The notes beneath the pieces are model-generated. The model had not been told where the DNA came from. It searched no databases and saw only the letters and a list, made by a program, of their open reading frames with translations. Below are positions 1-42,725 of a stretch of 42,725 nucleotides of DNA, in pieces (positions within the stretch are counted from its first letter, which is position 1; each line of letters starts with the position of its first letter). The stretch is from a virus (taxonomy: Duplodnaviria; Heunggongvirae; Uroviricota; Caudoviricetes), in IMG/VR virus record IMGVR_UViG_2737471827_000006, positions 1 to 42,725 of that record; one strand, written 5' to 3'. The translations under genes were made by a program, and so were the position numbers.

Positions 1-414
1 TTATCCTATGTATTCCTTCGCATTTATTCCATGCTTTAATAAGTGTATAAGGTTTTAGCTAAGTTGATTTTTTTATTGACTTGGCTTTTTTGTGTCTGGT
101 TTGATGGTCTAGTTATGAGTGTAGGTATTTTTCGATTAAAGCGTATATCTTGATTTTTATATTAAGAATCATTCCTGATTTCTACTGAAGCCAAGAGAAA
201 ATTATTAATATATTTCATAGGATGATTTTGAATTAGGATCTAAACAATAAGATATGGTTCACGTAAATTTATTTTGCTGGAGTGATAACTCGATTGGGTG
301 TTTATTGAGGGGGGGCAAAAATATTGGTTTGACATTATTATTACTACCTTTTTTTGTTTCTTTGCTCAGTGTTTACGTTGCTTTTTAGCGTGCAAAAAAT
401 AGAGAACTATTATA

Positions 415-1677
415 CTAATTCATTTTCTTTATTCTCTGGGCGAATTCAAACGGTGTAATGTGTTCTTTTCTGTTGGCATTAAGGTAGTCAGCCCACCATT
501 GTAACATGAGTTTTCTCTCTTCGAGATGTTCCGCTTTGTGGATATATGCTGCCCGAACCGAGTTACGCTCTTGGTGGCTCATTTGACGTTCTACGGCGTC
601 TCTTGACCATAACCCAGATTCGATTAATGCACTACAAGCCATAGTTCGAAAACCGTGACCACAAACTTCAGCTTTCGTGTCGTAACCCATGGTGCGAAGA
701 GCCTTGTTAACAGTGTTTTCGCTGATTGGTTTGTCATCGCGACTAAAACCAATGAACATAAGATCCTTTTCTCCACTTATAGCTTGGAGCCTTTTAAATA
801 ATACTACAGCCTGCTTACTTAGCGGCACAAGATGAGGGGTTTTCATTTTTGAGCCCCTATTTGAATACTTAACCCCCTCCAATTCTCGTCTTTCTGCAGG
901 GATTGTCCATAAGGAGTTTTTGAAATTCACCTCAGACCAACGAGCGAATCTAAGTTCACTTGAACGGATGAAAGTCAGTAGAGTTAATTGAACTGCTATT
1001 TGAGTGATACCTTTCCCTTTATAGGCATCAATCCGTTTGAGAAGCTCAGGAAGTCGTTCGAGGGGAAGGGCAGGGCGGTGATTACTCTTGGCAGTGGTTA
1101 CAGCGCCTGCGAGGTCGTAAGCTGGGTTTTGGTCAATCAAAGCATTGTGAACAGCATACCGCATGATGGCAGTGATTCTTTGTTGTAAACGGGCAGCAAG
1201 TTCAAGATGTCCAGTTTCCTCTGCTTTTTTCAGAGGAACAAGTAAATCACGAGTTTTAAGCTCACTAATGTTCCGCTTACCGATAACAGGAAATACATGA
1301 GTGATCAGGCTGTTTAATACGGTAGTTCTGTGACTGTCTGACCAGGTTCTGTTGCTTGAGTGCCAGTCTCTGGCAACAGTTTCAAAAATGAGTAAGCCTT
1401 TCTCTTCAATCTTTTCTGTTTTTCGCTTTTCGCCAGGGTCAACATTGTTGGCAATGAGTTGCCTTGCTTCTTCTCTTCTACGACGAGCTTCTGCTAAAGA
1501 CACTTCGGGATAAACACCAAGCGCCAACATTTTTTGCTTACCAGAAAAGCGATATTGAAGCCGCCAGTATTTTGAACCCGTAGGGTGAACCAGGAGATGC
1601 ATACCATCCCCATCTGTTAACTTGACGGGCTTTTCAGTAGGTTTCGCATTTCTGACTTTTACCTCAGTTAGTGCCAT
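415..1677 (-). CDS. int: Tyrosine recombinase / phage integrase (P4-like family)
   Basis: 420 aa ORF; N-terminal DUF4102-like arm-binding region and C-terminal catalytic-domain motifs typical of P4-type integrases; AGGAGG RBS 5-6 nt upstream of ATG; sits at the left end co-oriented with the early-left operon. Confidence 0.9.
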   Translation of the reverse strand: MALTEVKVRNAKPTEKPVKLTDGDGMHLLVHPTGSKYWRLQYRFSGKQKMLALGVYPEVSLAEARRRREEARQLIANNVDPGEKRKTEKIEEKGLLIFETVARDWHSSNRTWSDSHRTTVLNSLITHVFPVIGKRNISELKTRDLLVPLKKAEETGHLELAARLQQRITAIMRYAVHNALIDQNPAYDLAGAVTTAKSNHRPALPLERLPELLKRIDAYKGKGITQIAVQLTLLTFIRSSELRFARWSEVNFKNSLWTIPAERRELEGVKYSNRGSKMKTPHLVPLSKQAVVLFKRLQAISGEKDLMFIGFSRDDKPISENTVNKALRTMGYDTKAEVCGHGFRTMACSALIESGLWSRDAVERQMSHQERNSVRAAYIHKAEHLEERKLMLQWWADYLNANRKEHITPFEFAQRIKKMN

Positions 1678-1941
1678 TGTGACCTCCTGATGATGGTATC
1701 TGCATTATCGAACTTACAATACCAACAGTTATACCAACAAAACAAGCTGGATGTCCGTATATCCCAACAGTCCTTGGTAGACCATGGTTAAAGTGTACTT
1801 CATTGAAATGATTGGGAAAAATAGACTTTGATATACTTCGGTAGACAGGGTTCTGGCGTCCCCTGCAGACATCTACTTGAAGCGGCAGGGGATTGATTGG
1901 AATGATATTTTTTAGATGTGAGAAATATTTTACCCGCTATT

Positions 1942-3912: not shown

Positions 3913-4500
3913 TCAGAAAGGAGGGTAATCGTTCTGGCTGTAACCATAATCATCTGCATGATTCTGGCTTACGTTTTTAGAGCGATTGTCTTTATCTTTG
4001 AGATTGGCAACCATGTTGGCGATAGTTTCTGGTTGCTTGCCTTCTGCCTTTTCTTTAAGGGTTTGACCTGTTTGTGCAATAAACGGGATGCGTATTTCCA
4101 TCTGGTAGCTGTCTGCGCCAGTCTTTTTGTTTGTGGTTAATACTTTCTGGAGCACTAACCCGATTTTCTTTCCATGAAATTCAGGTGCAACAAATTTACT
4201 GGCGGAAACCATATGTTGCGTTAATTGTCCAATCCCGGCACACCCCATCATGGCGTGGACGACATTTGCGCCAAATTTATTTTCCGTTCCGTCATTTTTC
4301 TGAACACAGACGCTAAGATATTGGATTTTACGTCCGTCGTCGGATTCGCCAGAAAACTCAATAAATTTGGCTCCTTTTTCTGATTGCTTTAGTTCTGCTT
4401 CAGTAATGGTAATGATATGAGCGCCAGTTTCGTTAATAAAACCACCTTGCCCTGCGGTCAGTGCTGCTTCTTCGTTATAAGTAAAAATCACGTTGCTCAT
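3913..4500 (-). CDS. Phage SSB-like protein (DUF669-like) partnered with Sak4
   Basis: 195 aa; acidic aromatic C-terminal tip (DDYGYSQNDYPPF) reminiscent of SSB tails; sits immediately downstream of a Sak4-type ATPase, a known pairing. Confidence 0.65.
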   Translation of the reverse strand: MSNVIFTYNEEAALTAGQGGFINETGAHIITITEAELKQSEKGAKFIEFSGESDDGRKIQYLSVCVQKNDGTENKFGANVVHAMMGCAGIGQLTQHMVSASKFVAPEFHGKKIGLVLQKVLTTNKKTGADSYQMEIRIPFIAQTGQTLKEKAEGKQPETIANMVANLKDKDNRSKNVSQNHADDYGYSQNDYPPF

Positions 4501-5177
4501 GCGGCGTTTTCCTTAATTTGATGAACATTATTGATGCCGTAGTAATCACAAACAGTGGCATCGACGAAAGAGAGATCGTTATCAATCTCATTGGAGTCAA
4601 ACATTCCCATTGGGGATTTAACAGTGTCTGCACCGTTGTTTTTTGTGGTGAAAAAGAACTGGTCATCACGGGTAAGGGTGCGAAGAACTATAGTAAACAT
4701 GCCTTCGACAGTGATTTTCTCGTCCAGCATTTTGCCGATAGTTTTCATTTTCACGCGCCCCATAGGGGTTTCTTCGGTGTGTGCAAGAAAATAGACTCTC
4801 AGGTCATCAGGTGCATCCTGTGCAGCCTTAATCACCTCCCATGCGTGGCGGCCTATCTCAGTAAATTTATCAAACGATTTTTCTTCTGAGCGGCGCATAA
4901 ACTCATTGCTCATCACATACTGGAAGTCATCAACAATAACGATTCTTTTCCCGTATTCGTGAGCACGCTTAATTACGGCAACTATTACGTCCCATTTGTC
5001 AGTGGTAACTACGGTTCCTTTTTTTGCTCTGGCATCCCATGCAAGCCAGTCTTTTGATTTAAATGGTAGCGGCTTGCCTATTGGTTTTATAAGTATTGCT
5101 TCCTCTGGATTGATATTTCTCATGCTGGTTGATTTTCCGGTGCCAGATTCACCGAGTATTAATGTCGCAGTTCCCAT
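4497..5177 (-). CDS. Sak4-like recombination ATPase (RecA-fold)
   Basis: 226 aa; Walker A GESGTGKST near the N-terminus and Walker B-like IVIVDDF; occupies the exo/bet position. Confidence 0.8.
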   Translation of the reverse strand: MGTATLILGESGTGKSTSMRNINPEEAILIKPIGKPLPFKSKDWLAWDARAKKGTVVTTDKWDVIVAVIKRAHEYGKRIVIVDDFQYVMSNEFMRRSEEKSFDKFTEIGRHAWEVIKAAQDAPDDLRVYFLAHTEETPMGRVKMKTIGKMLDEKITVEGMFTIVLRTLTRDDQFFFTTKNNGADTVKSPMGMFDSNEIDNDLSFVDATVCDYYGINNVHQIKENAA

Positions 5178-5185
5178 AATTTGCC

Positions 5186-5386
5186 TCAGAATGGTAATTC
5201 GGATGGGACGGAAAGAAATTCGCGCTCATTCATGCGCTCTCTTTGAGCCTGCCATAAACAAAGTTGTTTCTTTGATTTATCTCCCGCTTTACGCCAGTAA
5301 CGAGCCTCAGCAATGTGATATTCTCTTTTTAATCGACTTAATTCTGGAGTTTTCGCCAGTTCTACCGGAATCATTTTGACCTCCAT
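5186..5386 (-). CDS. Small hypothetical protein
   Basis: 66 aa ORF between kil and the Sak4 gene. Confidence 0.45.
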   Translation of the reverse strand: MEVKMIPVELAKTPELSRLKREYHIAEARYWRKAGDKSKKQLCLWQAQRERMNEREFLSVPSELPF

Positions 5387-5484
5387 TTTCTGTAGGCTTC
5401 GATGGCCTCACGAAACATCTTTTCATCGCCAATAAAAGTGGCGATAGTGAATTTAGTCTGGATAGCCATAAGTGTTTGATCCAT
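5371..5484 (-). CDS. kil: Kil-like protein
   Basis: 37 aa from internal ATG of track ORF 5371..5610; MDQTLMAIQTKFTIATFIGDEKMFREA matches my recollection of the lambda Kil N-terminus; AGGAG RBS 9-10 nt upstream. Confidence 0.6.
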   Translation of the reverse strand: MDQTLMAIQTKFTIATFIGDEKMFREAIEAYRKWRSK

Positions 5485-5617
5485 TTTTTGGGACTCCTGG
5501 CTGATTAAGTATGTCGATAAGGCGTTTCCATCCGTCACGTAATTTACGGGTGATTCGTTCAAGTAAAGATTCGGAAGGGCAGCCAGCAACAGGCCACCCT
5601 GCAATGGCATATTGCAT
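5453..5617 (-). CDS. cIII: CIII (FtsH inhibitor that stabilises CII)
   Basis: 54 aa from internal ATG; MQYAIAGWPVAGCPSESLLERITRKLRDGWKRLIDILNQPGVPKNGSNTYGYPD matches lambda CIII as I recall it; AAGGAG RBS 5 nt upstream. Confidence 0.85.
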   Translation of the reverse strand: MQYAIAGWPVAGCPSESLLERITRKLRDGWKRLIDILNQPGVPKNGSNTYGYPD

Positions 5618-5645
5618 GGTGTGCTCCTTATTTATACATAACGAA

Positions 5646-5670
5646 AAACGCCTCGAGTGAAGCGTTATTG
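5646..5670 (-). terminator. Putative intrinsic terminator (tL-like)
   Basis: Minus-strand hairpin AACGCTTC-ACTC-GAGGCGTT running into a T-tract; between the accessory gene and cIII. Confidence 0.45.
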
Positions 5671-5680
5671 GTATGCATAT

Positions 5681-5704
5681 AAAAAGGCCCTCACACTGGA
5701 GGGC
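5681..5704 (-). terminator. Putative intrinsic terminator (tL-like)
   Basis: Perfect 6-bp stem GCCCTC/GAGGGC with 6-nt loop, followed by TTTTT on the minus strand. Confidence 0.55.
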
Positions 5705-5808
5705 AAAGAAGATTTCCAATAATCAGAACAAGTCGGCTCCTGTTTAGTTACGAGCGACATTGCTCCGTGTATTCACTCGTTGGAATGAATACACAGTGCT
5801 TATTTGTA

Positions 5809-6279
5809 CTAATAAAATACCCAATTTTCTGTTTCTTGGTTGTGTCCAAAGTTATATTCAATATCTGGTGTTGATGTATCAATATTCTTCATCCCATCAA
5901 CAAGAGTTGATGCAACAGCCAAATCTTGTTTGATTCTCATTAAATGGTATTTCTTCCGGCGCAATAAACTTTCAATGGCAAGTGTCTTCGTTGGGAATGC
6001 AAAAGATCTTTCTGCATTTTTTGCTACTTTCTTAATTGCATATCTATTTCTCTTTTGTTTCCATTCCTGTAACCACTGATTTGGTGCTGGTTTAAAATTA
6101 ACAATCCAATGCGCAGGAACCAACCATGCATAATGCTCTGTCTGATGAAAAGCTATATATTGAAGTGCGAATATTTTGATTCCATCTTCTTCAACTGTCG
6201 CCTGGAATCTCCAGAAAACAGGCATTCCATCATGTTCAGTTTCTGATTCAGGAAAAGGTACACTCCATGATTTTGTCAT
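5809..6279 (-). CDS. Hypothetical accessory protein at the sieB/ral/ea10 position
   Basis: 156 aa ORF directly downstream of N; visibly AT-richer than flanking lambda-like genes; no recognisable family. Confidence 0.65.
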   Translation of the reverse strand: MTKSWSVPFPESETEHDGMPVFWRFQATVEEDGIKIFALQYIAFHQTEHYAWLVPAHWIVNFKPAPNQWLQEWKQKRNRYAIKKVAKNAERSFAFPTKTLAIESLLRRKKYHLMRIKQDLAVASTLVDGMKNIDTSTPDIEYNFGHNQETENWVFY

Positions 6280-6287
6280 ATCTCACC

Positions 6288-6614
6288 TCAAATAAGTGGT
6301 TTGCTGCCTAATTTCATTTTCTGGCGACCAACACAAGTCACACCCATTTCACTGCGTGGCTTGCTGTACCATGTGCGCTGATTCTTGCGCTCAATACGTT
6401 GCAGGTTGCTTTCAATCTGTTCGTGGTATTCAGCCAGCACCGTAAGGTCTATCGGATTCAGTGCGCTTTCTACTCGTGATTTCGGTTTGCGATTCAGCGA
6501 GAGAATAGGGCGGTTAACTGGCTTTGCGCTTACCCCAACCAACAGGGGATTTGCTGCTTTCCATTGAGCCTGTTTCTCTGCGCGACGTTCGCGGCGGCGT
6601 GTTTGTGCATCCAT
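6288..6614 (-). CDS. N: Antitermination protein N
   Basis: 108 aa; arginine-rich N-terminus MDAQTRRRERRAEKQAQWKAANPLLVGVSAKPVNRPILSLNRKPKSRVESALNPIDLTVLAEYH closely matches lambda N as I recall it; AGGAGA RBS. Confidence 0.95.
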   Translation of the reverse strand: MDAQTRRRERRAEKQAQWKAANPLLVGVSAKPVNRPILSLNRKPKSRVESALNPIDLTVLAEYHEQIESNLQRIERKNQRTWYSKPRSEMGVTCVGRQKMKLGSKPLI

Positions 6615-6812
6615 CTGGATTCTCCTGTCAGTTAGCTTTGGTGATTGGATGGCCGGCGCTGAACCCCGGCTTACTGGTTAGAGCGCCCGCACTACCAGTG
6701 ACGCTGTCTTGAGGCGCAGATTGGTTACTGCTTGCCATGAGCGCTGTTTATACATTGGTCGAGCATCAGCCTGCTCATTCATCCAATCCCAAAGCCTTCT
6801 GCTTTGAATGCT

Positions 6813-6842
6813 GCCCTTCTTCAGGGCTTAATTTTTAAGAGC
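6813..6842 (-). promoter_or_regulatory. nutL (boxA plus boxB hairpin)
   Basis: Minus-strand reading GGCTCTTAA-AAATTAA-GCCCTGAAGAAGGGC; boxB is a perfect GCCCT/AGGGC hairpin as in lambda nutL; boxA differs from lambda CGCTCTTAA at one position. Confidence 0.85.
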
Positions 6843-6875
6843 CTCACCTTCATGGTGGTCAGTGCGTCCTGCTGA

Positions 6876-6911
6876 TGGGTAAACTTTATCGAAATGATAA
6901 ATTAATGGCAA
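6876..6911 (-). promoter_or_regulatory. pL-like promoter
   Basis: Minus strand: -35 TTGCCA, 17-nt spacer, -10 TAAAGT, then a leader beginning ATCAGCAGGACGCACTGACCACCATGAAGGTGA that matches the lambda pL transcript start as I recall it. Confidence 0.6.
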
Positions 6912-9976: not shown

Positions 9977-10853
9977 GTTAGCTGATTACAGGCATAACCC
10001 TGTACAACATCAGGAGGCATCCAGTATGGGGTATGTCTCTATACACCGCCAGTTTATGGACAGCAGGCTCTATAAGGACTCTCAGGCAGTACATCTTTGG
10101 CTTCACTTAATCCTCAAGGCTAATCACGAATCTACTGTCGTCAATACGGATATCGGTCCGATAACTGTTGATCGCGGTCAGATGATAACTGGACGCCCGT
10201 CGCTGGTCAGAGAAACATTCATCCCCGACAACAAAGTTCGGAGCTTATTGCGGACTTTTGAGTCGAAAGGAATGCTTAATATTTGCTCGATGGGGAAGAA
10301 ATTTAGCCTGTTTACAATCGTTAAATATGACGATTTTCAGGCAAAAAATTGTCCAACGGTTGTCCAACGGTTGTCCAACGCAAACAGCAGTAATGGCGCG
10401 GCTCTCAGCGGAGATTATCCAACGGTTGTCCAACGGTTGTCCATAAACAATAATATAAATAATATCTCTAATACTGACGTATTAGAGAGTGCCACAGCAG
10501 ACAAAAAGTCTGACAAGAAAAAACCTTCCGTTAGCTGTCAGGATGTTGTCGATGCTTACCACGAAATCCTTCCTGAAGCGCCAAGAATCCGCGCACTGAA
10601 TGACAAGCGTAAAAACCAGATCCGAACGTTCTGGCGCAAAGCCGGAGTGATAACCCGCCAGCTTGACGGGCATGGGTTCACGATGCAGGACTGGAGAAAT
10701 TATTTGAGCTACGTAGGCGAAAATTGCCGATGGATGTTCGAAGAGCGCCCAAACCATCAGCGCGGAACCGTCTGGCACAAAAAGGGATTTGATTTCCTGC
10801 TTAACGATAATACCTACCTGAAAGTTCGTGAGGGTGAACACGATGACCGATAA
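9963..10853 (+). CDS. Replication initiator (O-like / P22 gene 18-like) with internal origin
   Basis: 296 aa; the gene contains an iteron array whose translation gives repeated PTVVQRLSN; followed by a DnaB-like helicase as in P22-type replication modules. Confidence 0.8.
   Translation: MGVVKLADYRHNPVQHQEASSMGYVSIHRQFMDSRLYKDSQAVHLWLHLILKANHESTVVNTDIGPITVDRGQMITGRPSLVRETFIPDNKVRSLLRTFESKGMLNICSMGKKFSLFTIVKYDDFQAKNCPTVVQRLSNANSSNGAALSGDYPTVVQRLSINNNINNISNTDVLESATADKKSDKKKPSVSCQDVVDAYHEILPEAPRIRALNDKRKNQIRTFWRKAGVITRQLDGHGFTMQDWRNYLSYVGENCRWMFEERPNHQRGTVWHKKGFDFLLNDNTYLKVREGEHDDR
10349..10475. repeat. Origin of replication: iterons (TTGTCCAACGG, about six copies in two blocks) plus AT-rich stretch
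   Basis: Three tandem 11-bp repeats at 10349-10381, a second block at 10416-10447, then AACAATAATATAAATAATATCTCTAATA; lambda-ori-like placement inside the initiator gene. Confidence 0.8.
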
Positions 10854-35808: not shown

Positions 35809-35834
35809 CGTTTAAAACGACAGAGGGATTGGGT

Positions 35835-36407
35835 ATGGCGATTAGCTACGCATTTGCGCTGGCAACAATTACACAACAAATGAATCAGGTTCAGGAAGCT
35901 GTTAACGGTGCTTTCAAACCCCTGATCTCTAATGCTTGTGAACTGCCACAACGATTAGATGCTGAAGAGGTATTTCGTCGTTGTACCGCGATTGCTGCAC
36001 GCGCTCAAGAAATCGAAAATACCGCGAAGGAAGGCATGTCTCATCTCGAAGCTTTTCGAAATGGGAGAATCATTGTTGATGAGCTTCCGGAAGAGTTTTT
36101 ATCCCATCTCGAAGGTCTTGCCAAGGCATGCCGAAATGCTAAAGGACATTTAGTGGATATGTTCTCTGAAGCGGAAAGGTCCCCTATGTGGCAAGGCCAT
36201 CTGCAAATGTTGCGCCCATTAAAACGCAAATATGTTCGTGCGTTGACCGCCGTCGAGAACACTGCAACTCAGTTGGCCGCTGAAGTTAGGCAATCGCAGC
36301 CTTTCCAGGCTGAACTCTTGTCAGATAATGTTACCCGTGAAGAGGCTATTGAACTGATCTCAACATCGCATAAGATGCTGGGAGCCAACGCCCATAAATG
36401 GATGTGA
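35835..36407 (+). CDS. Hypothetical protein A of accessory two-gene operon
   Basis: 190 aa from ATG at 35835 (GAGGG 7 nt upstream); predicted largely helical; no recognisable family; lower GC than flanking tail genes. Confidence 0.6.
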   Translation: MAISYAFALATITQQMNQVQEAVNGAFKPLISNACELPQRLDAEEVFRRCTAIAARAQEIENTAKEGMSHLEAFRNGRIIVDELPEEFLSHLEGLAKACRNAKGHLVDMFSEAERSPMWQGHLQMLRPLKRKYVRALTAVENTATQLAAEVRQSQPFQAELLSDNVTREEAIELISTSHKMLGANAHKWM

Positions 36408-36408
36408 C

Positions 36409-36825
36409 ATGGCAAAAGTCAGTATCACGGGAGAATTGCGTCATTTAGCTGCAGCACATAAGTATGCTCAAATGCTTGCCGATTATATTTCAAAGGGTTC
36501 CCAGTTCTGGTGTTTTGGTTCGTTAGGCGGTTTTGAACGTAACTATGATGCGATGGCTGCCAACATCAGGAAAATTCACTTAAAGCTACCTGGCGATAAA
36601 CCCTGGCCTCCAGAAGCATCTCTGAGTGAACGGACATGTGATAATTTTTTGGTATATGCTCAGCATCTTTATATCGATGAACACTATCAGATATTGGCAA
36701 TCATCAGCCCAAACGCTCATCAGCAAGCTGATTCGATGCTTCCCCGGCTGATAAAATTAGCAGAGGAAACCTTCATAGAACTTCCTCCTGATGAACTCGA
36801 AAAATTGAAAACCTACGATTCATAA
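36409..36825 (+). CDS. Hypothetical protein B of accessory two-gene operon
   Basis: 138 aa; start 1 nt after the stop of gene A; followed directly by a strong terminator. Confidence 0.6.
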   Translation: MAKVSITGELRHLAAAHKYAQMLADYISKGSQFWCFGSLGGFERNYDAMAANIRKIHLKLPGDKPWPPEASLSERTCDNFLVYAQHLYIDEHYQILAIISPNAHQQADSMLPRLIKLAEETFIELPPDELEKLKTYDS

Positions 36826-36867: not shown

Positions 36868-37620
36868 ATGGCAGTATCTGACCAGACCCGCAGCGGCGAC
36901 CTTGCCGAAACATTCAAATCTGAACGGGAAACAACAAAGAATCAGATCCGTGTCGCCTTGCCTGGCATTATTCAGTCATTCGATCCTGATGCGGTGACGG
37001 CGGTTGTGCAGCCTGCTATCCGTTCGGTTGAAAAGGATAATGACGGCAACCGCATTACCAAAAATTACCCATTGTTGGTGGATGTTCCAGTGGTATTCCC
37101 ACGTGGCGGAGGATGTACGCTAACGTTTCCGATTAAAGCCGGGGATGAGTGTCTTGTCGTTTTTGCCGATCGTTGTATTGATTTCTGGTGGCAGAGCGGC
37201 GGAATACAGGAACCGGTCGATGACAGAATGCATGATTTATCGGATGCGTTTTGTATTGTAGGCCCCCAGTCGCAGGCGAGGAAGATTAGCGGCATTAATA
37301 CCAGTGCCACACAGTTGCGTAGTGACGATGGCAGCACCTATTTTGAGCTTAATCCTGATACCAGGAAAATTAAAATTGTCGCTCCGGGTGGTCTTGATGT
37401 GGTTGCCCCTCTGGCTGATTTTTCTGAGAAAGTAACCATTCATGGCCTGTTAACCTGGATGGGGGGCATGGTGGGGTCTGTTGTTTCTGGTGTGGCTTCA
37501 AAAATCACTGGTGTTGTTGAGTTTTTGGGTAGCGTGAAGGCTAACGGCAAGCCAATCGATGATACGCACACTCATGGCGGTGTTCAGCGCGGTGGAAGCA
37601 ATACCGATGGGGTAAACTGA
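36868..37620 (+). CDS. Baseplate assembly protein V (spike)
   Basis: 250 aa; resembles P2 gpV / Mu gp45-type baseplate spike proteins. Confidence 0.65.
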   Translation: MAVSDQTRSGDLAETFKSERETTKNQIRVALPGIIQSFDPDAVTAVVQPAIRSVEKDNDGNRITKNYPLLVDVPVVFPRGGGCTLTFPIKAGDECLVVFADRCIDFWWQSGGIQEPVDDRMHDLSDAFCIVGPQSQARKISGINTSATQLRSDDGSTYFELNPDTRKIKIVAPGGLDVVAPLADFSEKVTIHGLLTWMGGMVGSVVSGVASKITGVVEFLGSVKANGKPIDDTHTHGGVQRGGSNTDGVN

Positions 37621-37973
37621 TGCGATACAGACGTGAAGACGCCGATGGCGATTACACCTTTGGCAGCGGTGATGACACCTGGCTGATTAACTCACCGGAG
37701 GCCGTGGCGCAGGCGGTAAAAACGCGATTCGAATTGTGGTATGGGCAATGGTTTCTCGATACCACCGAAGGGACTCCGTGGATCCAGTCCGTACTCGGTA
37801 AGCAGAAGCCGGAAACCTACAACCTGGCGATCCGTAAGCGCATCCTCGAAACGCGGGGCGTTAAATCAATCCTCTCTTTCAATACGACGGTGGATACCAC
37901 GACCCGACGTGTCATGTTTTCCGCTGAAATCGACACTCTTTATGGAATAACGACTGTTACATCGGAGGCGTAA
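37620..37973 (+). CDS. Baseplate protein (gpW-like)
   Basis: 117 aa between V-like and J-like genes; assignment by synteny. Confidence 0.45.
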   Translation: MRYRREDADGDYTFGSGDDTWLINSPEAVAQAVKTRFELWYGQWFLDTTEGTPWIQSVLGKQKPETYNLAIRKRILETRGVKSILSFNTTVDTTTRRVMFSAEIDTLYGITTVTSEA

Positions 37974-39172
37974 TGGCTCTGAACCTTGATTCTCTTGGTT
38001 TATCTGCAAAGGTAACCGCAGAGGGGATCAGTGCGCCTGATTATCAGACGATACTCAGCACCCTGATTAGCTATTTTCAGCAGATTTATGGCAGTGATGC
38101 CTACCTCGAACCGGACAGCAAAGACGGCCAGATGGTGGCTCTGATGGCGCTGGCGATTCATGATGCCAATAATATGGCGATAACTGTCTACAACTGTTTT
38201 TCACCGGCAACCGGCTATGGGGCTGCACTGACCAGCAACGTGAAAATAAATGGTATTTCACGTAAAGGCGCGACGAACTCTACGGTTGATTTGCTTCTTA
38301 CAGGAACTGCAGGAACAACCATCATTAATGGCAGCGTGAAAGACAGTAATAATGTGATATGGCGTTTGCCTGCTTCAGTGGTGGTCGGCGTGGATGGTAC
38401 AGTGATGGCGACCGCAACATGTTCCGTCAGTGGTGCAGTGGCGGCGCTGGCTGGAACTATCACTGAAATTAATACGCCAACCCGTGGCTGGGTTTCGGTA
38501 ACTAATCCTGCTGCGGCTACTGTTGGCTCTCCGGCAGAAACTGATGCTGAGTTACGTATCCGCCAGTCGCAAAGTGTTGCGTTGCCATCGATAACCCCAT
38601 TTGAAGCACTGGATGGTGCTGTTTCTAATGTTACCGGTGTAACCCGCCACAAACTCTATGAAAACGATACTGGTTCGGAGGACGGTAACGGGTTACCGCC
38701 ACACTCTGTTGCTGTAATTGTGGATGGCGGTGATGTGACGGATATTGCTCAGGCTATCAGAGGAAATAAAGGCCAGGGGACAGCCACTCACGGTACAACA
38801 TCCGTTACGGTTCCGGATAAATACGGCAATCCCCATGTAATCAAATTCTCGCGTTCCAGTGATGTGCCTGTTTATGCCCGGATTAAATTAAAAGTTTTTA
38901 CGGGTTATACCTCACAGATAGGGCAGCAGATCCAGCAGGCTATTTCCGACTATATCAATAGTCTGACGATTGGTGATTCAGTCCTTTTAAGTCGCATTTA
39001 CTCACCGGCGAATCTTGGCGTGGTGAGTGGCGGGAATGCACGCTATTACGATATTCAGGAACTGACGATTGGGAAATCCTCGGGGGCTTTGTCGTCATCA
39101 AACATTGATATCAGATACAACGAATCTGCGTCCTGTACCCCAGAAAATATCGTTATAACGGTGGAGTCATGA
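37973..39172 (+). CDS. Baseplate J-like protein
   Basis: 399 aa; position and size match baseplate J / Mu gp47 family. Confidence 0.65.
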   Translation: MALNLDSLGLSAKVTAEGISAPDYQTILSTLISYFQQIYGSDAYLEPDSKDGQMVALMALAIHDANNMAITVYNCFSPATGYGAALTSNVKINGISRKGATNSTVDLLLTGTAGTTIINGSVKDSNNVIWRLPASVVVGVDGTVMATATCSVSGAVAALAGTITEINTPTRGWVSVTNPAAATVGSPAETDAELRIRQSQSVALPSITPFEALDGAVSNVTGVTRHKLYENDTGSEDGNGLPPHSVAVIVDGGDVTDIAQAIRGNKGQGTATHGTTSVTVPDKYGNPHVIKFSRSSDVPVYARIKLKVFTGYTSQIGQQIQQAISDYINSLTIGDSVLLSRIYSPANLGVVSGGNARYYDIQELTIGKSSGALSSSNIDIRYNESASCTPENIVITVES

Positions 39173-39849
39173 GCAAATACACCGAACTAATCACGAACTA
39201 CCACGCCACCAAACCTAAATTTCTTGCGCATGTTGATCTGATGACCCGGCCACTTATTGATGTTGCGGCTGCCACCAGAGGGCTGATTACTGCATTTGAT
39301 ATTGACTCTGCGGTTGGTGTGCAACTTGACATTCTTGGATTGTGGATCGGACGCAGCCGTGTTGTCAGCCAGCCTATCTCAGGTGTCTATTTCAGCTGGG
39401 ATACCGACGGGCTTGGATATGATCAGGGTGTATGGCAGGGGCCATACGATCCTGATTCCGGATGCATGTACCTCAGCGATGAAACTTATCGTGTCATCCT
39501 TAAAGCGAAGATTGCGATTAATAACTGGGACGGACGGAATGATTCGCTTCCGGCAATTCTTGACGCGGCGACAGCAGGATCCGGACTGCGAATGCAGATA
39601 GTCGATAACCAGGACATGACGATATCGGTCTGGCTCTTTCCTGATACTGATATTTCAGATGTATCGCGTGAGTTAATTGCGGCAATTAAACAGGGATATC
39701 TCACAGTAAAAGCCGCCGGGGTTTGGGCGGGTGGCATTGAAACACCTTCGGTGGAAACTCCATCGGAAGGTTCAAAATTTTTTGGTTTTGATATGGATAA
39801 CGAATTCATCAGTGGTTTTGATGTAGGGGCATGGGGAGTATTACTCTGA
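39169..39849 (+). CDS. Tail protein (P2 gpI / Mu gp48-like)
   Basis: 226 aa following the J-like gene. Confidence 0.5.
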   Translation: MSKYTELITNYHATKPKFLAHVDLMTRPLIDVAAATRGLITAFDIDSAVGVQLDILGLWIGRSRVVSQPISGVYFSWDTDGLGYDQGVWQGPYDPDSGCMYLSDETYRVILKAKIAINNWDGRNDSLPAILDAATAGSGLRMQIVDNQDMTISVWLFPDTDISDVSRELIAAIKQGYLTVKAAGVWAGGIETPSVETPSEGSKFFGFDMDNEFISGFDVGAWGVLL

Positions 39850-40565
39850 TGGCGAAAAATGACTTTAAAGCGTTTGCAACTGATCGGAATGCCAATGTTA
39901 TGTCGCAGGAGGAATGGGAAGCGTTGCCTGCGCTTTTATCCGGATTTACAGCAGGGAAAGCATCCAGTGCGCAAGTCAATAAGGTTATTCGGCAGGCCAG
40001 CTTTATTGCTGCAGCTCTGGCCCAGTTTGTAAGTGACAAAACGCAACGGGATGTGCTTGATAATGGTGATCTGCCCGGTTTTGTTGAATTGCTGGGATCG
40101 GGGTTTGCTGTTGAATACCTGAGCCGCAAGAATCCGTTTGGCGATATCAAATCGGATGGCACGGTGAAAACGGCTCTCGAAAACCTTGGTTTAGGAGATA
40201 TCAGTGCTACAGGTGTTGCGACAGGTAGTATGGGCGAAACCGGATATGCCATATTTCCGATGATGATTGGCGGTACGCGTAAGACGCTTATTATGCAATG
40301 GGGAGTAATGACATCTCTGAGATCAGGCGGCACTATGGATATTAATCTGCCGATTGCTTTTCCTACTATGGTTATGCAGGCATATGCAACACATGATAAT
40401 GTGATACAAACCGCACGACCGACAGTATATGCAATTGCCCCAACAAGCCGAACCACTATCACTGCGACGGCGATGAGCTTACGTGCTGACTCAGTGGGTG
40501 CTGCAGTGACGCGCAGTAGTGACAGTGATTTGTGTTACGGCCGTTATCTTGCAATAGGGTACTGA
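39849..40565 (+). CDS. Tail fibre protein
   Basis: 238 aa from ATG at 39849; N-terminus MAKNDFKAFATDRNANVMSQEEWEAL is typical of tail-fibre N-termini; followed by a tail fibre assembly gene. Confidence 0.65.
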   Translation: MAKNDFKAFATDRNANVMSQEEWEALPALLSGFTAGKASSAQVNKVIRQASFIAAALAQFVSDKTQRDVLDNGDLPGFVELLGSGFAVEYLSRKNPFGDIKSDGTVKTALENLGLGDISATGVATGSMGETGYAIFPMMIGGTRKTLIMQWGVMTSLRSGGTMDINLPIAFPTMVMQAYATHDNVIQTARPTVYAIAPTSRTTITATAMSLRADSVGAAVTRSSDSDLCYGRYLAIGY

Positions 40566-40566
40566 A

Positions 40567-40972
40567 ATGAATCTGAAATATTTTTCTCCATCAGAAAATG
40601 CGTTTTATGCCGGGGAGCTTAAGGAAAGCTATATTGCTGCAGACTCATGGCCTTCTGATGCCTTGGAGGTTGACGAAAGTCTTTATCTTGAGTTTATCGA
40701 TGAGCCGCCAGCAGGTAAGTATCGTGGAGTGGATGATGCAGGTATGCCCTGCTGGCTTGAAATTCCTCCACCCACCGCAGAGGAAATGGCATCGAATGCA
40801 GAGAATATGAGACAGCAGCTCATTGATGAGGCAAATGTTTATATAAACAAACGTCAGTGGCCGGGAAAAGCAGCGATAGGCCGTTTAAAGGCGGATGAAC
40901 TGGAACGATATAACCTTTGGCTGGATTACCTGGATGCGCTGGAAGTAGTAGACACCTCCAGCGCGCCAAACA

Positions 40973-41001
<29 letters not shown>
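40567..41001 (+). CDS. Tail fibre assembly protein (Tfa)
   Basis: 144 aa; C-terminal ...[31 protein letters not shown] is the hallmark Tfa ending. Confidence 0.85.
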
Positions 41002-41376
<375 letters not shown>

Positions 41377-41567
41377 CCACTTCACACGTCGTATGCAAGA
41401 ACGTGCTGCGGCTGGCTGGCGAACTTTCGATAGTGCGAGTATTGAATGATTTCCAACTGTTGCCGATTTTACTATGTTTTCAGTAGAACACTTAGACAAA
41501 ACTGAGGCACACAAATCTTTGCACTGGATTGCAAGGCTTTGTGCTCTTCGATAGTGGTTAAGGAGGA

Positions 41568-42725
41568 TTACTCCACCTTTCCATCAAGCCAATCCGCCCA
41601 CCACTGCATCATTTCTCTGCGCTTATCGAGATACTGAGCATGGTTGTAAATTCCACGCACAGAACCGCCGTTGGCATGTGCCAGTTGCACTTCAATAGCG
41701 TCAGCAGGCCATTCGTGCTCGTTCATAATCGTGCTGAATTCATGCCTGAATCCGTGACCGCTTTCCAGACCTTCATAGCCGATTTGTTTGATCACAAGCA
41801 ATACCGCGTTCTCGCAGATTGGCTTCTTCTTATCGTTGCGCCCGGCAAAAACAAACTCTGAGACTGGTTTGGTGATTGAGCTTAGCGTAGTGAGAAGTTC
41901 AACCACCTGGTCTGACATCGGGACCACATGAATTTTGCGTCCCTTCATCACACTGGCGTCGATGGTGATAATCCTGTTTTCAAAATCGACGTTCTTCCAT
42001 AGCATGGAACGAAGCTCTTTCGTTCTTAGGGCTGTATAACGTAAAACTTTTGTCGCAATGAGCGATACGATACTTCCTGAAAATGTTGCCAGTGCTTTGT
42101 TGAATGCAGGCATCTGGTCTGCTGGAAGGAACGGGAAGTTCTTCTTGCGGTATCCTTTCATGGCGTCTGCAAGGTCAGGTGCTGGGTTATATTTAGCCCT
42201 TCCGGTGACAATAGCGTAACGAAAAACCTCGCCGCATCTTCTGCGGGCTTTGTTGGCTCGCTCCATTGCACCGCGATCTTCAAATCTGCGGATTACTTCC
42301 AGCAGTTGCATCGGCTCAATATCCTGAATCTCAAGACCGCCGATGATGGGTAAAATGTCGTCATCAAACATTTTGGCAAGTTCAGTTGCATAGCCTACTG
42401 ACCAGACTTGCTTCTTGTGCTCGTACCATTCCTTGTAAATCGCACTAAATGAATTGTTGTTAGACGAAGCCTTTTTCGCCTTTACCGGATCGATGCCAAC
42501 CGAGATGTCTTTCCTCGCAGTCCATGCCTTATCCCTTGCTTCCTGCAAAGTCATAAGCGGATATTTTCCGACAGTCAGGATTTTCTCCTTACCGTCAATC
42601 TTGTAGCGAAGCTGCCATACCTTTTTCCCGGATACAGGGACATAAAGGTACAGGCCATTACCATCGAGAAGGCGGTATGGTTTTTCTTTCGGCTTTGCTG
42701 CTTCAATCTGCTTAACGGTGAGCAT
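41568..42725 (-). CDS. Second tyrosine recombinase / integrase (P4-like family)
   Basis: 385 aa; same family as the left integrase but clearly a different sequence; start codon sits at the window edge, so upstream context is missing. Confidence 0.9.
   Translation of the reverse strand: MLTVKQIEAAKPKEKPYRLLDGNGLYLYVPVSGKKVWQLRYKIDGKEKILTVGKYPLMTLQEARDKAWTARKDISVGIDPVKAKKASSNNNSFSAIYKEWYEHKKQVWSVGYATELAKMFDDDILPIIGGLEIQDIEPMQLLEVIRRFEDRGAMERANKARRRCGEVFRYAIVTGRAKYNPAPDLADAMKGYRKKNFPFLPADQMPAFNKALATFSGSIVSLIATKVLRYTALRTKELRSMLWKNVDFENRIITIDASVMKGRKIHVVPMSDQVVELLTTLSSITKPVSEFVFAGRNDKKKPICENAVLLVIKQIGYEGLESGHGFRHEFSTIMNEHEWPADAIEVQLAHANGGSVRGIYNHAQYLDKRREMMQWWADWLDGKVE

Follow-up and report, generated by a model that had tools for sequence, protein, structure and literature searches.

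Introduction

The organization of the IntS-TorI recombination module, found in KplE1 (CPS-53) of Escherichia coli K-12 and in phages HK620 and Sf6, has been described previously (PMC2951348, PMC3509656). TorI is a recombination directionality factor and the partner of IntS (PMC3509656). KplE1 and HK620 substrates have been shown to undergo excision that depends on IntS, TorI and IHF; the promoter of intS overlaps with attL, and its transcription is uncoupled from that of torI (PMC2951348). A third phage, CUS-3, has been grouped with HK620 and Sf6 by its recombination module (PMC2951348). In K-12, the order is argW, intS, approximately 10 kb of further sequence, torI and pawZ, a 15 nt copy of the 3' end of argW. 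The annotated order in HK620 and Sf6 is tailspike gene (followed in Sf6 by an O-antigen acetylase gene), int on the minus strand, attP core, hkaC/TorI on the minus strand and then the early-left genes. This system is already known and well characterized, and no new biology is implied by the locus described here.

That locus is in a 42,725 nt stretch of Caudoviricetes DNA (positions 1 to 42,725 of IMG/VR record IMGVR_UViG_2737471827_000006), the whole of which is referred to here as the window. A P4-type integrase gene lies at each end of it. A first-pass annotation, made from the letters of the window alone, paired the left-hand integrase with the prophage between them and judged that the right-hand one was probably from a neighbouring element. 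Comparison with related phages, prophages and chromosomes leads to the opposite assignment.

The right-hand integrase gene

The ORF at 41568-42725 on the minus strand is intact and encodes a 385 aa protein, and its ATG is the exact end of the window. In this protein, Pfam domains Arm-DNA-bind_3 (2e-25), Phage_int_M (6e-28) and Phage_integrase (7e-39) were found, which is the architecture of P4-type (DUF4102) tyrosine recombinases. The same three domains, all above threshold, are present in the 420 aa product of the left-hand ORF, at 415-1677 on the same strand. An alignment of the two proteins over about 400 aa gave 32% identity (E=1e-64), so that the window does contain two different P4-type integrases on one strand, as the first-pass annotation reported.

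The right-hand protein is 99% identical (383/385 aa) to the CPS-53/KplE1 IntS of K-12 and is an IntS-type integrase of the module seen in KplE1, HK620 and Sf6. Its gene shares 95-99% DNA identity with the int genes of HK620, Sf6, CUS-3 and other phages. R234, H324-x-x-R327, H350 and Y360 can be read in the alignment with K-12 IntS, and we take these residues to be the R..HxxR..H..Y catalytic motif of tyrosine recombinases. It is very probable that 41568-42725 is intS, that it is the own integrase of a prophage that occupies 1869-42725 and is inserted at argW, and that this prophage belongs to the KplE1/HK620/Sf6 recombination-module group. A neighbouring element is not needed to account for the gene, as the TorI gene and an attR core lie at the opposite end of the same prophage (see below).

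The earlier assignment had started from the expectation that a lambda-like prophage would not have an integrase gene after its tail genes. This expectation fails for HK620, Sf6 and KplE1, where attP is located between int and xis (PMC2951348), and it is because of this location that IntS is encoded beside the tail genes. None of 5,426 complete E. coli genomes matched 40900-42725 over at least 80% of its length, and a promoter and terminator scan of 41000-42725 revealed nothing decisive.

torI, attR and the left boundary of the prophage

At the other end of the window, torI is found at 1942-2142 on the minus strand. The predicted protein is identical (66/66 aa) to TorI of K-12 and belongs to PHROG 66 (excisionase); it is the TorI component of the module, a recombination directionality factor that would work with IntS. 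Thus, the gene, labelled as that of an AlpA-like excisionase in the first-pass annotation, had been paired with the wrong integrase, since the partner of TorI is IntS.

The stop codon of torI is separated by a 73 nt phage arm (1869-1941, minus strand) from an att core at 1854-1868, the same spacing as in the attR of K-12. On the minus strand, the core is the 15 nt 3' end of the tRNA-Arg(CCU) gene argW, CTGCAGGGGACGCCA, which on the strand given reads tggcgtcccctgcag, and it is equivalent to pawZ in K-12. When 1780-2200 was compared with the K-12 torI-attR region, the phage side was nearly identical through torI, the arm, which aligned without gaps, and the core, and the sequences diverged right after it. 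An attR that consists of the torI end, a phage arm and an argW 3'-end core is therefore present. The core matches the sequence CTGCAGGGGACACCAT given in PMC2951348 except for a G variant at position 12, position 16 being flank, and its general form in argW is CTGCAGGGGAC(A/G)CCA. It is also identical to the argW 3' end in relative L002 (9854-9868), with the sequences differing from 1869 on.

A search of the whole window that allowed up to two mismatches found a single copy of the core, at 1854-1868, and hence no boundary falls in 1-414 or 41002-41567. From these comparisons, we take 1854-1868 to be both the attR core of the prophage and the tRNA-proximal end of a genomic island, and the element boundary to be at 1868/1869, not near 41.4 kb. 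An ARAGORN scan of the window returned no tRNA gene, argW being represented inside it only by the 15 nt 3' fragment. The first-pass annotation, which had seen neither a tRNA gene nor an att core, was thus correct about the former and had missed the latter. A window-wide search for direct repeats detected iterons and chance 14-17-mers and no terminal repeats, which is expected because attL falls outside the window.

Two GGGTAAAA motifs were found in a motif search, at 1928-1935 and 1940-1947, the second of which overlaps the end of torI. IntS arm sites include a conserved TAAA (PMC2951348), and the two motifs, which together span 1928-1947, may serve as arm-type sites for IntS.

A further 16 nt stretch (GGAATCGAACCTGCAA), at 2162-2177 just upstream of the torI start, is the same as part of the argW T-arm, outside the 15 nt core. 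Chance alone would give approximately 0.03 such matches. Both K-12 and HK620 have conserved this stretch, and their annotation labels the region as the cII-activated 'phage integration' promoter. It could be the relic of an older att site, or the match could be a coincidence with a regulatory site.

The left-hand integrase and the genomic island

The DNA of 1-1868 is 100% identical to the corresponding stretch of strain CUVET21-37, in which the prophage is absent. There, the integrase gene (RefSeq WP_023277626.1, same coordinates) is 176 nt from an intact argW, beyond which are yfdC and mlaA, and the match with the window breaks off at 1868, 15 nt into argW. Because 1-1868 matches an island that is joined to argW without the prophage and identity stops at 1868, we assign the 420 aa integrase (415-1677, minus strand) to a genomic island that extends leftwards out of the window, and not to the prophage. 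Two elements do lie side by side, one of them with an integrase that is foreign to the prophage, as had been supposed, but the foreign integrase is the left-hand one and the boundary is at 1868/1869.

Positions 1-414 are non-coding island DNA that separates the island integrase gene from an RloB-family gene located immediately beyond the window; L001, L002 and L020 are collinear with this stretch, with 99.5-100% identity. In relatives, the island includes genes for an AAA-ATPase, RloB, ParB, a relaxase and a recombinase, together with hxs genes, and ends approximately 45 kb away at a further copy of the core. The junction between the island and torI was found in 44/5,426 complete E. coli genomes. 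The genomes with only the island, on an intact argW, show that it is able to occupy this site without the phage. Arrival of the island before the phage fits with these genomes, which are no proof of it.

The island genes nearest the integrase gene, which encode an AAA-family ATPase and an RloB-family protein (17983-20000 in L001 and 5983-8000 in L002), are to the left of window position 1, and the window start directly follows the annotated end of the RloB gene. By annotation, the pair resembles an anti-phage defence system. A PICI-like or P4-like satellite was considered as the source of each integrase and rejected, as the left-hand one heads an island of approximately 45 kb that in relatives has relaxase, ParB and defence-like genes, and the right-hand one is IntS and is bounded by argW.

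The right flank and attP

As the window stops at the intS ATG, attL, the intS promoter and argW had to be taken from close, non-identical relatives. Contigs that share the right end, among them L018 and L016, were recovered by searching for proteins exactly identical to the tail-fibre assembly protein. In L018, the closest relative, which is 99.2% identical to 37615-42725 without gaps, a tRNA-Arg(CCT) gene is 161 nt upstream of the intS start and is followed by yfdC, mlaA, yfdF and fadL. The order intS-argW-yfdC was also found in PEC389, GPEC349-628, LR-72 and NCTC9967, and the 161 nt arm and argW of L018 are nearly identical to attL of K-12. In the relatives, argW, yfdC and mlaA are found beyond intS with no mobile genes there, and 41002-41567 contains no core or repeat; an att boundary and further element genes of the kind that would mark a separate element were thus not seen on either side of intS. 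Judging from these relatives, intS appears to face the core chromosome rather than another element. The attL and argW of the genome from which the window derives would be approximately 161 nt beyond the window end, and the limits of the prophage would be 1869 and argW, reached about 176 nt past that end.

When the attL arm of L018 was joined to the attR arm of the window, the resulting virtual attP aligned without gaps to 1148-1715 of HK620 (547/568 identical). In FXCREC035 it likewise matched, again with no gaps, the intS-torI junction where two copies of a prophage lie in tandem. This strain carries the same island, a prophage with structural genes 97.5% identical to those of the window, and then a second tandem copy. 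In FXCREC035, HK620 and Sf6, int is followed by 161 nt, the core, 73 nt and torI, so that attP lies between the integrase and excisionase genes, and in the window intS and torI bracket the phage genes. The two apparent IntS-type prophage copies beside the island in FXCREC035 (L020, NZ_CM135826.1, 45451-47058) have an intact intS-attP-torI junction, in which 249 nt separate intS from torI. This suggests that FXCREC035 is a tandem double lysogen, though an assembly artefact is also possible.

In the circular phage, the order would be early-left genes, torI, 73 nt, a core of 15-16 nt, 161 nt, intS and, on the opposite strand, the tail genes. If the KplE1 literature applies, IntS with IHF would integrate this circle at the 3' end of argW and so split the pair. 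intS would come to lie next to argW, at attL, after the tail-fibre genes, and torI would end up at the far side, next to attR; the two genes are at opposite prophage ends because attP lies between them. In the window, attR abuts the island, presumably the earlier occupant of argW, and the outcome is the tandem array island, core, prophage, argW. By the same literature, TorI would bind the arms and direct excision, and by analogy with KplE1 excision at attL and attR would need IntS together with TorI and IHF. The intS promoter, again as in KplE1, would overlap with attL, just outside the window, and both IntS and TorI would repress it. On this reading, the prophage would be competent for excision, with intS regulated in this way.

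The core ends in ...GACGCCA in the argW of island-only genomes and in the attR of the window, and in ...GACACCA in the attP of HK620 and in the intS-side argW of L018, GPEC349-628 and K-12. This pattern fits a simple reciprocal exchange between attP and attB on the 5' side of core position 12, in support of the integration proposed here. GPEC349-628, which has the same tandem layout but a P22-like phage body, contains three cores, with A at the distal island end (beside the dsdCXA/csc region), G in the middle and A at argW. By itself, the pattern does not fix the order of the two insertions. Comparison of 1854-1868 with L018 (8321-8335), L005 (20641-20655) and L002 (9854-9868) revealed that argW receives a different 3' end from each of the two elements. 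Position 73, the discriminator base, is G where the tRNA gene adjoins the island and A where it adjoins the IntS phage, and each insertion therefore changes this base of the tRNA.

The prophage body and the region near 41.4 kb

From the attR phage arm to the intS start (1869-42725), the prophage is lambdoid with a contractile-tail structural module. Its genes include those for an S24 repressor, Cro, CII, an O-like protein, DnaB, lysis, terminase, portal and head proteins, and its tail genes include those for a DUF3383 sheath, tape measure, baseplate J and DUF2612 proteins. The same layout is found in FXCREC035, and from its gene content the prophage may be inducible. Inside the O-like replication initiator gene, at 10337-10443, at least five copies of an 11 bp unit (TTGTCCAACGG) are probably the origin iterons of a lambdoid replication module. 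At 35829-36825, within the baseplate cluster, an ORF for 192 aa lies upstream of a gene for a YafO-family toxin (36409-36825; Pfam 4e-17). The same pair was found in LR-72, FXCREC035 and L018; it is likely a moron, and its members may act together in defence or as toxin and antitoxin.

The last intact late gene of the prophage is a tail-fibre assembly gene at 40567-41001 on the plus strand (Pfam Caudo_TAP, 3e-31). A second, opposing tail-fibre assembly gene is represented by a C-terminal remnant at 40973-41141 on the minus strand (Caudo_TAP positions 74-131 of 131, E=1.5e-16) that has been cut off by an IS fragment; K-12 has a matching tfaS/yfdK-type arrangement. The fragment, at 41142-41387 on the plus strand, is the 3' remnant of an ISEc52-like IS3-family element, 94% identical to ISEc52 in NCTC9967. 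It includes a 68 aa ORF (41170-41376) for the C-terminal end of the transposase (Pfam rve_3/rve_2; NCBIfam transpos_IS3 positions 317-368 of 369), which confirms the IS remnant noticed on first inspection. The conserved 3' flank of intS (41388-41567, minus strand) includes a hairpin at 41517-41536 and a mosaic joint at approximately 41450-41495.

Homology on the intS side starts at 41388 in L003, at 41494 in K-12 and at 41520 in HK620. Prophages located at other sites (L012, L014 and L019) match leftwards only up to 41449-41472. The segment 40122-41472, with the IS remnant, recurs at 99.4% identity in L012 and L014 (5556-6906 in both), which are at other sites and have other integrases, a 365 aa integrase adjoining a Dus-family gene. 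L019, near rsmF, shares 39000-41449 at 98.0% identity (4434-6882). Because the tail block recurs at other sites and intS-side homology begins at 41388-41520, the discontinuity at approximately 41.45-41.5 kb is best read as an ordinary mosaic joint between the tail end and the integration module inside the phage, and not as an att boundary. The IS3 fragment and this joint, near 41.4 kb, fall within the prophage and do not mark the boundary of an element.

A single block is made up of the tail-fibre tip, the intact and the truncated second assembly gene and the IS3 remnant, and an IS scar is thus circulating as a component of a phage module. At this position, relatives have O-antigen-modifying genes, gtrABS in K-12 and acyltransferase genes in Sf6, GPEC349-628 and LR-72, which are absent here.

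Alternative readings

If the left-hand integrase and the excisionase were those of the prophage, the right-hand integrase would belong to a separate prophage or satellite that starts near 41.4 kb and extends to the right. The arrangement of lambda-type phages, with int and xis adjoining at one end, favours this, as do the distance of only 264 nt between the left-hand integrase and excisionase genes, which are on the same strand, and the IS fragment between the tail genes and the right-hand integrase. However, the argW core at 1854-1868 separates the left-hand integrase gene from torI, window 1-1868 is 100% identical to an island found on an intact argW without the phage, and just 161 nt, argW, yfdC and mlaA are to the right of intS in relatives. 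Furthermore, 1-414 and 41002-41567 have no repeat in common, and TorI is known to work with IntS (PMC3509656). Such a right-hand element is already contradicted by these results and is scarcely credible. A different possibility is that intS and attL are the stub of an older CPS-53-like argW prophage that an IS-mediated deletion or recombination fused to the tail end of another phage. The truncated IS3-family element (41142-41387) and truncated assembly gene (40973-41141) could mark such a fusion, segments 40122-41472 and 39000-41449 are shared at 99.4% and 98% with L012/L014 and L019, at other sites and with other integrases, and tandem IntS-type prophages, which could yield such deletions, exist. 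Yet the same structural module meets intS without an IS in L015 and in FXCREC035 (tfa, 93 nt, intS), and the tail module of LR-72 (L007) also ends at intS-argW, with an acyltransferase gene and IS1 between. As the IS remnant travels with the tail-fibre block at other sites, it is older than the junction in the window; the same element has, on its other side, the torI-attR end that matches intS, and such mosaic joints are ordinary features of lambdoid phages. We consider a fusion to an older stub very unlikely, and give as little credence to its corollary, that intS bounds the element now and was not the ancestral integrase of this phage body. Given the IS3 remnant and mosaic joint, the linkage of the phage body to this copy of intS could nonetheless be secondary.

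Returning to intS as the own integrase of the prophage, IntS and the island integrase share the 15 nt argW core, of which the array contains three. A joint reading in which island and prophage interact is highly improbable. In it, occasional recombination at non-cognate cores by IntS/TorI or by the island integrase might excise or mobilize the island with the phage, and TorI might affect expression of the island integrase gene, the start of which is 264 nt from the torI stop with the attR core in between. IntS requires arm-type sites, which the distal island end presumably lacks.

Comparison with known systems

For annotation, the value of this locus is that in the IntS/TorI group (KplE1, HK620 and Sf6) the integrase follows the tail genes with the excisionase at the opposite end, and that a P4-type integrase beside an excisionase can be from a different, tandemly inserted island. 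With the boundary at 1868/1869, the prophage limits and the assignment of genes to elements become correct.

The 420 aa integrase resembles what is known of the variable argW-dsdCXA region and PAI-CFT073-argW, in that its island occupies argW on the dsdC side, a listed island hot spot. The window differs in containing only the integrase gene and 414 nt of the island, and identity to any named PAI is not implied.

The structural module is closest to that of the E. coli prophage-derived vB_EcoM-606R2 group (95.6%) and to that of Salmonella phage SEN34 (82.5%). The closest structural matches in phage collections, vB_EcoM-611R5 and relatives, were set aside as uninformative on att sites, as the record inspected (ON470588) is without IntS. 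It has a different early region and ends in host genes, with a yfhH-like regulator gene, pgpC and tadA at 40486-42739 of ON470588.1 (L006). The vB_EcoM-611R5 record has the appearance of a prophage interval delimited by prediction, and not of a genome that was packaged.

KplE1 (CPS-53) shares with the window an IntS that is 99% identical, a TorI that is 100% identical, a core that is the same except for one base and the 73 nt between torI and core, and in both intS is at the argW end and torI at the opposite end. However, K-12 retains only approximately 10 kb, without repressor or structural genes, whereas the prophage in the window is approximately 41 kb with regulatory, replication, lysis, head and tail genes. 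After intS, K-12 has gtrABS (yfdGHI) where the window has the IS remnant, and the attR of K-12 abuts dsdC while that of the window abuts the island.

HK620, Sf6 and CUS-3, P22-like phages (Lederbergvirus) that integrate at argW, have int genes that are 95.7-96.6% identical to intS of the window. The torI/attP arm is 96.7-97.3% identical in HK620 and Sf6, CUS-3 not being among the arm matches, and in these two phages attP is between int and the excisionase gene, with int after the tail gene cluster. All three differ in being podoviruses with tailspikes, whereas the module in the window is, from its genes, of the contractile-tail type.

Lambda also combines a tyrosine integrase with a small winged-helix excisionase that is transcribed from the early-left operon (PMC2951348). 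In lambda, attP is beyond int, and int and xis are together at one end and co-transcribed from pL (PMC2951348). In contrast, an attP of the type seen here splits int and the excisionase gene, transcription of the one is not coupled to that of the other, and int has a promoter that overlaps with attL (PMC2951348).
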